This document shows, in pieces, positions 30,001 to 33,000 of a stretch of DNA of 64,000 nucleotides. How positions within the stretch are numbered: the first letter of the stretch is position 1; every line of letters begins with the position of its first letter. Source of the DNA: a virus (lineage: Duplodnaviria > Heunggongvirae > Uroviricota > Caudoviricetes); IMG/VR virus record IMGVR_UViG_2703718814_000005, positions 1 through 64,000 of that record. One strand, written 5' to 3'. Made by a program: the position numbers.

Positions 30001-33000
30001 AAATAGACGACAGTAACAACGCTTATATGGCGGAAGAACTCTTCCACGGGAAGGCGGAAAACGACCTGAACGTGATGAAGGAGCGCTACGTTCAGCCACT
30101 GGCTAAATTACTGGCGGACTACAAAATTGCGCAGGCCGATCTGGATGAGTACCTCTACGCCCGTCACGCGCCGGAACGTAACGCGCATATCGCGAAAATC
30201 AACCCGAAAATGCCGGACGGCGGTTCGGGGATGACCAACGCGGAGGCGGCGGAAATCATGCAGCGTGTACGTAACAGCGGCAAACAGGCACAGTATGACC
30301 GTCTGGCAGGGATTGTTGACGATATGCTGGCCCGTCGCCGTGAGCTTATCCGTGAGGCAGGACTGGAAGAGAGCGGCGTGGTGGATGCCTGGCAGAAAGC
30401 CTACCGTTACTACGTTCCCCTGAAAGGGCAGGATGTTGACGGTGTGGTGTCACTGCCACGTACAGGCAAGGGATTCACCATCGGCGGGCGTGAAAGTAAG
30501 CAGGCCATGGGGCGCGCATCCCGCGCACAGTCTCCTTCCACTCAGGCGATACAGGATTTGAGCGAATCACTGATCCGCAATCGCAAAAATGAAGTGGGTA
30601 ACGCCTTCCTGAAACTGGTACAGGATAATCCCGACAAGGATTACTGGCAGGTATTCACCGATGACAGACCGGATACCATGCGGACGATTGCAGAGCGCAA
30701 GGACAAGGAAACTGGTGAAACCATTCGCGAAGTTGTCGAACGCCCTGTACCGATGGCAATGATGGCAGACCGGTACTTCACCACCAAAAAGAACGGCAAA
30801 ACGTACTACATCAAACTCCATGATCCGCGCCTGATGCGTGCGATGAAGAATATGGGACCGGAAACCAGTAACGCCGTAATCCGCACGCTGGGGAAAGTTA
30901 ACCGCTTCCTGGCAACGGTGAACACGTCGTATAACCCGGAATTCCTGGTCAGTAACTTCATCCGTGACGTACAGACGGCGGTGATGAACCTGAAGGCGGA
31001 GCAGGGAAGGAGCGACGGCAAACTGAAAGGGCTGGATAACTTATCCGCACTGGCTGTGGTGAAAGACAGTCGGTCTGCCATGTCTGCCGTATACGCCAGT
31101 CTGCGTGGTAAAACCCTCACGGGCAACGGTGCGCAGTGGCAGAAGGTGTGGAAAGAGTTTGTTGAGGACGGAGGTAAAACCGGCTGGTTTAACATGGGTG
31201 ACCTTGAAGGCCAGCAGAAGGAAATGGATCGCCTTGTATCGCTGGCGAAGGGAGGATGGAAAGGCCAGAGTATCGGTGCATGGAATTCGTTCCTTAACCT
31301 TGTCGAGGATGCCAACGGGGCGGTTGAAAACGCTCTGCGTCTTTCTGCCTATAAACACGCCCGTGATGCCGGTTTGTCACGCCAGCAGGCGGCGTCTCTT
31401 GCCAAAAACATGACGGTGAACTTTAACCGTCGTGGTGAGCAGGGGGCGCTGATGAACTCGCTGTACATGTTCGCCAACGCCAGTATTCAGGGAACGGCAA
31501 ATCTGGTGAGAACGCTCGGACATCTTAATGGTGAGGGACCTTTACTGGAGCGCCTTCGCTGGAAGAATCTGAATGTTCCGCAGAAAATCGCGCTTGCCGC
31601 TGTGGGAGCGGGTTATCTGCTTGGCTCGCTTAACCGCAGCGTGGCGGGTGAGGATGATGACGGGGTTAACTGGTATGACAAAGTACCGTCTCATGTGAAA
31701 GAGCGTAACCTCGTCATTATGAAATCGATGTTCGGGGGCAGGGCCGGAGAGTACTGGAGTATTCCTCTGCCTTACGGGTACAACGTTTTCTTCCTGCTCG
31801 GGCATACCTCTGAAGGTGTGGCTGCTGGTGACCTGACGGCGTCCCGTGCTGCCGGTAATGTTGTCGGTGGTATCCTGGGGGCATTCAGCCCGATTGGCAG
31901 TGAGACGTCGGAAACGCTGTCCGGGGCATTGCTGAAAAATGCAGCACCGACAATTCTGCGTCCGTTTGCGAATCTTGCCATGAACGAAAACTTCATGGGG
32001 GCGCAGATTTACCAGGAGAACATGCCGTTTGGTACACCAAAACCTGACAGCCAGCTGGGAAGACGTTCAACGCCAGAAGCGTACAAGGCGTTTGCATTCT
32101 GGCTGAATGCGTTCTCAGGTGGCAGCCAGTATCGTCCCGGCGCGGTGGATATCACACCGGAATCGCTGAAATTCTGGATTGACTATATCTCCGGAGGGAC
32201 AGGGCGCTTCATTTCCAAAACCACGGATGCGGCGGTGAAATCGCTGAATGGTATTGATATACCGGAACAGCAGGTGCCCTTCCTGGGGAAAATTTCGGGT
32301 GAGGTGATGCCGTATGCAGACCAGCAGAAGATGTACGACCGGATGACAGAGGTTGCGCAGTATCACGCAGAGCTGAAGAGTCTGACCGGTGCAGAAAGAA
32401 CGGCGTTCATTGACGAGAACAACGGAAAATTGTTGATGAACGGGCTTATGCAGGATACCCGGAAGAGACTGAAGGATTTGCGCAAACAGCGCGATGCCAT
32501 TTATGCCGACAGTTCTCTCAGTCTGGCGCAGCAGGCGGCGATGGTGAAATCGGTAGAGCGGGATATGAAGGTTGCCGTGGATCGCTTTAACCGCGAGTAC
32601 AACAAAAAAGTGGGAGTGGATTAACAGAAATGGCCCCGTACGGAAGTGCGGGGCTGATTAAGAGATAAACACACATTAACCTGTAATAACCGGAGCTATT
32701 AACATATAGTCAGAAAGAGTATTTCATGTGAGACAGAGAGCCGATTTATGTTTAATGAAGAAAAAGTTGCGCAAATGGCAGCGTATTTGCTGAAAAAGCA
32801 TGGCGGATCTATGCGTTTCATTAAGCTGATGAAGCTGATGTATCTCTCTGACCGCAAAGCAATGGAGTCTTTAACCGGGAAGGGGAGAGGTTTGAATGCT
32901 CCCCCACAATTCCCCGGCATCAAATCTCCATGTAGGTGAACTATTTTACCCCCAGCGGCAAATCGCAAAAACAATCAGTGCGATCGAAATGGCAGCCACT

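Follow-up and report, generated by a model that had tools for sequence, protein, structure and literature searches.

Between the late genes and the leftward operon of a lambdoid prophage lies an ORF of 63 amino acids that is labeled "hypothetical protein" in most RefSeq genomes. The question raised by this locus is whether the ORF is a short gene in its own right or what is left of a larger one. The window analyzed here is a stretch of 64,000 nucleotides containing the prophage, whose late operon closes with a 2806-aa ORF. The ORF listing returned the 63-aa ORF as an ATG ORF on the plus strand (32748..32939), with the same coordinates and translation as in the original prediction, in which it had been described as the remnant of a Panacea-domain (antitoxin-type) gene.

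Gene context of the 63-aa ORF

The ORF is located between the 2806-aa ORF and a leftward-oriented DUF551 gene. The neighboring features are as follows:

24204..32624, plus strand: giant 2806-aa polyvalent ORF, last gene of the late operon and left neighbor of the cargo slot
32632..32655, plus strand: G+C-rich hairpin (−20.5 kcal/mol) just 3′ of the stop codon of the giant ORF
32946..33029, minus strand: small hydrophobic peptide gene of 27 codons, overlapping the DUF551 stop by ATGA
33026..33952, minus strand: DUF551 gene, last intact gene of the leftward operon, convergent with the remnant

Relatives of the giant ORF contain the Pfam families LPD5, LPD1, MuF_C, and LPD38 and are annotated as LPD38/LPD5. 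The hairpin at 32632–32655 and the final ~125 nt of the giant ORF make up a 148-bp segment (32508–32654), which is present as a direct repeat on both flanks of the cassette described below in its intact relatives. The 27-codon peptide gene is disabled in the window by a change of TGG to TAG in codon 3 (33021–33023). The name DUF551 was taken from the annotation under the match in near-identical RefSeq genomes. The leftward genes beyond it are, according to the annotation of relatives, ead/Ea22-like, DUF4752, TraR/DksA, and Ant. The end of the prophage adjoins ynfF/ynfE, and the insertion site ynfG/ynfF is common to related Escherichia coli prophages. The assumption that the ORF occupies a prophage cargo site is in accordance with its position in the slot that separates the late operon from the distal end of the leftward operon, where relatives carry IbrAB, a YgiW-like protein plus Hok, or other modules.

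A scan for sigma-70 promoters between 32400 and 33200 did not reveal any promoter. Two "terminator-like" sites detected by a scan of the same region fall in the coding stump and do not exceed the expectation from shuffled sequences. An Rfam search of 32300–33300 (E ≤ 1) returned just two sub-threshold chance matches.

Homology of the ORF to PanA

The Panacea-like start of the ORF is far beyond chance. A subfamily HMM was built from four distant PanA proteins encoded by phages of Klebsiella, Yersinia, Pseudomonas, and E. coli, which are 40%–49% identical; three of the four were tested on PF13274, and all three were positive. Among 1824 six-frame segments of the window, only the ORF segment was matched by this HMM (62.9 bits, E = 3.5e-18, positions 1–41 of 186), and the second-best segment had an E-value of 3.5. 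A syntenic, PF13274-positive protein of 174 aa is known from E. coli G6/7 and phage PhiR5_2. When this full-length protein was used as a tblastn query against the whole window, only 32775–32867 was matched (28 of 31 residues identical, E = 4e-12), with nothing else below E = 0.8, so that no further fragments of the gene were recovered. The PHROGs family phrog_1281, which comprises full-length PanA proteins, matches ORF residues 1–41 (E = 1.1e-4), while the family to which the 63-aa ORF itself belongs, phrog_3658, is made of such stumps. Over residues 1–40, the ORF does not differ from an intact 186-aa PF13274 protein that sister prophages encode at the same position; residues 41–63 did not align to PanA proteins. 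Judged by sequence, residues 1–40 unmistakably represent a PanA N-terminus.

The profile search that had been suggested for the ORF gave a divided result: the PanA subfamily HMM and phrog_1281 were positive, whereas Pfam PF13274 itself matched neither the 63-aa ORF nor its 40-aa true part nor the 66-aa cM8a variant, even at E ≤ 10. In intact relatives with the ancestral start, the PF13274 domain begins only at residue 27. The stump retains about 14 of the 113 domain positions and ~88% of the domain is gone, as expected from the original prediction that the ORF stops well before a complete domain. The Pfam search therefore failed because so few domain positions survive and not for want of homology. 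The syntenic 174-aa allele reaches 70.7 bits on PF13274 (cut-off 25.7, residues 16–127) and the intact relatives 71–95 bits. Since PF13274 gives the stump no score, its assignment to PanA is based on homology at the subfamily level and on synteny.

The GPV motif of Panacea proteins, which is reported to be critical for neutralization (PMC8832971), is found in intact PanA at approximately residue 56 (...NKGPVLS...). It lies 3′ of the break at codon 40 and is absent from the window. The toxin partner is missing as well, as had been noticed from the sequence: tblastn of three partner proteins (see below) against the window yielded nothing below E = 0.1, and no second fragment of PanA or of a partner was detected anywhere in the window by tblastn or the six-frame HMM search. 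NCBIfam and PADLOC searches with the stump, the intact PanA, and the partner gave nothing meaningful, and a PDB sequence search with PanA gave no significant match. A PanA by descent, but devoid of a PF13274 score, the GPV motif, and an adjacent co-oriented toxin gene, the 63-aa ORF is most appropriately annotated as a PanA pseudogene fragment.

The missing Pfam match, together with the fact that ORFs of 63 codons are common by chance, might suggest that the ORF arose by chance or through misassembly and resembles Panacea proteins only superficially. We give this explanation no credence, because the profile of distant PanA proteins matches the ORF segment (E = 3.5e-18) and no other, the ORF is syntenic with and identical to an intact PanA over 40 residues, and the identical junction (see below) occurs in dozens of independently sequenced complete genomes.

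The intact cassette and the 865-bp deletion

In Yersinia phage YeP1 and Klebsiella phage ST13-OXA48phi12.5, the distant PanA genes are followed by an ORF of 135 aa, the two genes overlapping by 4 nt or lying 3 nt apart. Using tblastn, the same partner ORF was detected directly 3′ of PanA in Pseudomonas phage Sirocco, a Vibrio phage, a Helicobacter phage, and the E. coli phages Lys8385Vzw and SKA5. A database search with the partner protein of a distant phage recovered an E. coli member of 133 aa, designated P0063. The six loci encoding P0063 belong to the same prophage family as the window and occupy the same chromosomal site; they represent the related prophages with an intact module that the original prediction had proposed for comparison. 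Their gene order is the giant LPD ORF, PanA (186 aa, PF13274) and, after 5 nt, P0063 (133 aa), followed by the oppositely oriented genes IbrB, IbrA, and Ant and, beyond the prophage, ynfF. Until the partner protein led to this intact cassette, the source of the 78 nt following the break in the window was untraceable in complete E. coli genomes or IMG/VR.

With the intact cassette as a reference, the 63-aa ORF can be divided into the following parts:

32748..32867, plus strand: PanA codons 1–40 (MFNEEKVAQMAAYLLKKHGGSMRFIKLMKLMYLSDRKAME) with the native start codon kept, the true remnant
32823..32840, plus strand: two copies of the 9-bp tandem unit AAGCTGATG (Lys-Leu-Met)
32868..32869: deletion junction with a 1-nt microhomology, T32868 being common to both flanks
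32869..32939, plus strand: adventitious ORF tail (SLTGKGRGLNAPPQFPGIKSPCR plus stop), formerly DNA 3′ of the predicted toxin gene
32875..32918, no strand assigned: imperfect hairpin CCGGGAAGGGGAG...CTCCCCC..TTCCCCGG, located 3′ of the predicted toxin gene in intact relatives
32901..32905, plus strand: C5 homopolymer, which is C4 in O104:H4-type carriers

The reference L036 is one of the six loci, and its intact PanA gene occupies 5435–5995. The alignment of the window to L036 consists of two blocks. The left block pairs window 32400–32868 with L036 5087–5555 (96% identity), and the right block pairs window 32868–32995 with L036 6420–6546 (95%). The window allele is thus the L036 cassette minus 865 bp (L036 5556–6420), with a single T at the junction that is common to both sides. 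PanA codons 41–186, the whole partner gene (L036 6001–6402), and 18 nt past the partner stop codon are missing. The last 23 codons of the ORF, including the hairpin at 32875–32918, correspond to the former 3′ flank of the partner gene. Since the ORF tail is read from DNA 3′ of the toxin stop codon, it is not an ancestral coding sequence. The hairpin shows weak similarity to a diverged copy 3′ of the orphan PanA allele of strain G6/7. Its interpretation as a relic of the cassettes of distant phages was dropped, as it resembled none of the Yersinia, Klebsiella, Pseudomonas, and Lys8385Vzw loci.

In L036, the peptide gene is cut by a second copy of the last 148 bp of the giant ORF, whereas the window runs on into the peptide gene and DUF551. 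Because L036 and the window differ by 4%–5% in sequence and also in their right-hand modules, we infer rather than observe the true ancestor, in which the cassette would have been combined with the small-peptide gene, as its right neighbor, and DUF551.

We consider it highly probable that the ORF is a pseudogene stump resulting from one 865-bp deletion within a two-gene PanA–PanT cassette, which was carried as cargo of a lambdoid prophage at the end of its late operon. The degraded toxin–antitoxin or defense module postulated for this site is supported; intact PanA genes with a toxin-like partner are present in sister prophages. The deletion eliminated the GPV motif with the rest of PanA, the toxin gene in full, and a further 18 nt of the 3′ flank, and joined 40 PanA codons to non-coding DNA, from which 23 arbitrary codons and a stop codon are now read. 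Joint loss of both genes in one deletion leaves no un-neutralized toxin gene behind. As toxin and antitoxin disappeared at the same time, nothing is left for the stump to act on, and it is most likely without function. The reverse order of events, in which the cassette was inserted into an older short gene, would be hard to reconcile with the homology of the 40 N-terminal residues to PanA proteins from unrelated phages.

A truncation of PanA could also result from recombination between phages, in which a module swap at a mosaic boundary cuts the gene. The slot is such a mosaic junction, its right-hand modules vary (IbrAB, YgiW-like plus Hok, DUF551, and others), and the 148-bp direct repeat flanks the cassette in intact loci. 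A swap would, however, bring in foreign sequence, whereas both sides of the junction are collinear with a single intact cassette (95%–96%), and the right side runs 128 nt into the cassette's own 3′ flank, as predicted for a simple intragenic deletion. A module swap is therefore highly improbable in this case.

Carriers and polymorphism of the junction

Of 5426 complete E. coli genomes, 43 share the identical junction, O104:H4 outbreak strains among them; examples of carriers are 2011C-3493 (O104:H4) and FORC_069. It is also present in 15 IMG/VR contigs. The 78 nt following the junction never occur in complete E. coli genomes that lack the PanA stump and junction. The junction allele goes back to one deletion event. 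Downstream of this event, the carriers differ from each other. The KLM-encoding unit AAGCTGATG is present in 1, 2, 3, or 6 copies, and in the O104:H4-type carriers a C4 instead of the C5 run shifts the frame of the tail, which results in an annotated ORF of 88–91 aa. The predicted products range from 51 to 103 aa in length. Because of the variable repeat number and the frameshift in the C run, the ORF is not conserved at a length of 63 aa, which contradicts the alternative of an unrelated short gene conserved at this length. For the deletion remnant, these changes would represent ongoing drift through repeat-number variation and homopolymer frameshifts.

It is very unlikely that the truncated ORF is a functional short gene, whose N-terminal PanA peptide would have a regulatory or decoy role or would partially neutralize a toxin from another locus. 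Its native start codon is preserved, as is the region upstream of it, so that expression of the 63-aa peptide is possible; the junction allele is fairly widespread with 43 complete genomes and 15 viral contigs; and toxinless orphan PanA alleles persist in sister prophages. The peptide would, however, retain only ~14 of the 113 Panacea-domain positions without the GPV motif, its C-terminal 23 residues were formerly non-coding and are read in a different frame in C4 and C5 alleles, and its repeat number (1 to 6) and called length (51 to 103 aa) vary among the carriers. Neither PADLOC nor NCBIfam matched it, and the window contains no other Panacea gene or partner toxin. Retention of the stump for some function of the cassette regulatory region, the 40 codons, and the variable KLM repeat also appears scarcely probable. 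One possibility in this case would be modulation of prophage gene expression by a phase-variable micro-protein or by a transcript converging on the leftward operon; another possibility would be a minimal N-terminal PanA peptide that interferes with the Panacea-type systems of competing phages. A non-functional deletion remnant is the most likely interpretation.

Other decay routes of the cassette

A census with the PanA gene of strain G6/7 revealed pieces of the cassette in 176 genomes, and at least four further inactivating lesions of the PanA/partner cassette were identified in sister prophages. The O157/933W type, to which most of the other ~115 genomes of this census belong, has two internal deletions and a REP-like insertion. 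In relation to L036, the deletions affect PanA (nt 5523–5920) and ~75 codons of the partner gene, the latter in frame. The G6/7 type (18 complete genomes and five IMG/VR contigs) carries a CAA to TAA change at PanA codon 9, and only six partner codons are left. In one strain, an IS3 element is located inside PanA. The UTAK-1 type is truncated, and its break coincides with that of the O157 type in the KLM repeat; the repeat site at 32823–32840 is the left breakpoint of these two other deletion alleles. One fragment of the same PanA gene carries the RefSeq label "SocA family protein."

A fully intact pair was present in no complete genome of the collection; it was found only in draft assemblies and one metagenome scaffold. 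A search for a full-length partner in complete E. coli genomes with O157 remnant DNA did not return any and was swamped by the REP-like element. The G6/7 lineage shows the other safe route of loss, in which the toxin gene goes first and an orphan antitoxin is left.

The lost partner gene

The partner family corresponds to phrog_19071, with a weaker match to phrog_1925, both of which are listed with unknown function. Neither Pfam, including PemK/MazF, nor NCBIfam or PADLOC matched the family, and a PDB sequence search with the partner did not yield a significant match. In an alignment of 31 members, H20, H22, C25, D55, C58, and H65 are invariant. A confident AlphaFold2 model calculated from this alignment (pLDDT 90.3, pTM 0.82) displays the SH3-like barrel fold of MazF/Kid. 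The 133-aa partner is a predicted MazF/Kid-fold toxin and probably an endoribonuclease.

The ancestral 186-aa PanA would bind and neutralize the 133-aa product of the next gene, and the cassette would serve as an addiction or phage-defense module. By analogy to characterized PanA–PanT pairs, the ancestral genes may have formed a working type II toxin–antitoxin module, with both toxicity and neutralization. The giant polyvalent ORF was also considered as a toxin that is guarded by an orphan PanA. This candidate was rejected, because the intact locus has a dedicated partner and the giant ORF is intact wherever PanA is destroyed.

Comparison with known toxin–antitoxin systems

Most PanA antitoxins neutralize their cognate toxins by direct binding, and two validated PanT toxins are MazF/PemK-like according to HHpred and inhibit translation (PMC8832971). 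The PanT cluster T6 is typified by PanA–PanT of Pseudomonas moraviensis with its MazF/PemK-like toxin (Kurata et al., 2022, PMC8832971), and its members include Proteus, Pantoea, Photorhabdus, and Yersiniaceae (PMC8832971). The ancestral cassette resembles T6 in that the antitoxin gene comes first and is followed by the toxin gene with a gap or overlap of few nucleotides. As in T6, its PF13274 antitoxin has no additional N-terminal domain, and the small toxin lacks a Pfam match and has a predicted MazF/Kid-like fold. The taxa of T6 match those of the partner family, which by taxa, gene order, and MazF-like prediction is a candidate member of this cluster. Unlike a working PanA–PanT system, the window has kept only 40 antitoxin codons, and the toxin gene is gone.

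The Panacea domain is common to SocA and the PanA protein of the intact relatives. SocA–SocB of Caulobacter crescentus is a type VI toxin–antitoxin system, in which the Panacea-domain antitoxin is a ClpXP adaptor. In contrast to SocA–SocB, the partner in the prophage cassette is not SocB but a protein with a predicted MazF/Kid-like fold. Compared with the toxins of MazEF and Kid–Kis (PemIK), the partner has only 5%–16% sequence identity and does not match Pfam PemK/MazF; the antitoxin is MazE or Kis in these systems and PanA in the cassette.

The closest parallels to the remnant itself are decayed or orphaned toxin–antitoxin loci and moron remnants of lambdoid and Stx-type prophages. These likewise occupy a variable cargo slot at a mosaic boundary and show several independent inactivating lesions across sister prophages. 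In comparison with such loci, the remnant has nothing distinctive and is a textbook example.

Implications

The remnant by itself is of little consequence. It represents the decay of a familiar protein family at a familiar type of site, and annotation pipelines list the dead fragment as "hypothetical protein." As an example resolved to the base, it illustrates how a prophage loses a toxin–antitoxin cargo module in one step, with both genes disappearing at once, and the same cassette displays at least four alternative decay routes in sister prophages, those of O157:H7 and O104:H4 included. The recurrent "hypothetical protein" family phrog_3658 and the related phrog_28947 and phrog_1925 can be annotated as PanA/PanT pseudogene fragments. 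P0063 and its PanA represent a candidate pair of a PanA antitoxin and a predicted MazF-fold protein in E. coli prophages.

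Insertion site and genes flanking the cargo slot

The lambdoid prophage ends in the window next to ynfF/ynfE. In O104:H4, the prophage boundary carries a fragment of a 4Fe-4S (ynfG-like) gene, and the prophage therefore appears to be inserted within ynfG.

Window ~36.7-42.1 kb: prophage right end, adjoining ynfF/ynfE (two 808-aa ORFs, minus strand)
Window 24204-32624, plus strand: giant polyvalent ORF (2806 aa)

The giant ORF, located to the left of the cargo slot, is intact in all lineages in which the adjacent cassette is destroyed. Its relatives contain LPD5, LPD1, MuF_C and LPD38 domains. 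HExxH-type motifs are present in its sequence.

To the right of the slot, a short gene encoding a hydrophobic single-helix peptide overlaps the DUF551 gene.

Window 32946-33029, minus strand: small peptide gene, 27 codons, ATGA overlap with the DUF551 stop codon
L008 (related prophage) 2501-2584, minus strand: intact copy, product MSWPEAFAIVGVAISIALIIFSICRWG

The window copy contains a TAG at codon 3 (33021-33023). Of 5426 complete E. coli genomes, about 900 contain this conserved segment of approximately 85 bp, located 3' of DUF551 and of other leftward-operon genes. The segment was not covered by an annotated gene in the loci inspected, and the peptide had no PHROG match.

Direct repeat around the intact cassette

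In prophages with an intact cassette, 148-bp direct repeats flank the genes of the antitoxin PanA and its partner PanT together with a truncated small-peptide gene.

L036 (relative with intact cassette) 5195-5342 and 6542-6689, also L037-L041: 148-bp direct repeat
Window 32508-32654: the same segment, one copy only

The repeat comprises the final ~125 nt of the giant ORF and its hairpin. It may be a footprint of the recombination that brought in the cassette or the adjoining IbrAB module, and precise excision could use it as a substrate.

Decay of panA and the partner gene

L003 3559-4110, also L030-L034: G6/7-type orphan PanA
L005 (O157:H7 86-24) ~3355-3402: REP-like element, ~48 nt, inserted in the partner-gene remnant
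Window 32823-32840, L014 ~60-115 and L001 ~3223-3250: in-frame 9-bp tandem repeat AAGCTGATG (Lys-Leu-Met)

Every "full-length" G6/7-type allele has codon 9 changed from CAA to TAA, and translation must therefore restart at Met10. Of the toxin gene, these alleles retain only six codons (MMFSPY). Their PanA seems to be an orphan antitoxin in which decay has also begun. The REP-like segment has thousands of matching sites, which occur in almost every E. coli genome (4859 of 5426).

The copy number of AAGCTGATG is 1, 2, 3, or 6 among otherwise near-identical carriers, and both the O157-type and the UTAK-1-type deletions have their left breakpoint at this site (L036 5522). Because of this variation and the two deletion types starting there, the Lys-Leu-Met repeat site looks like a hotspot of slippage and recombination.
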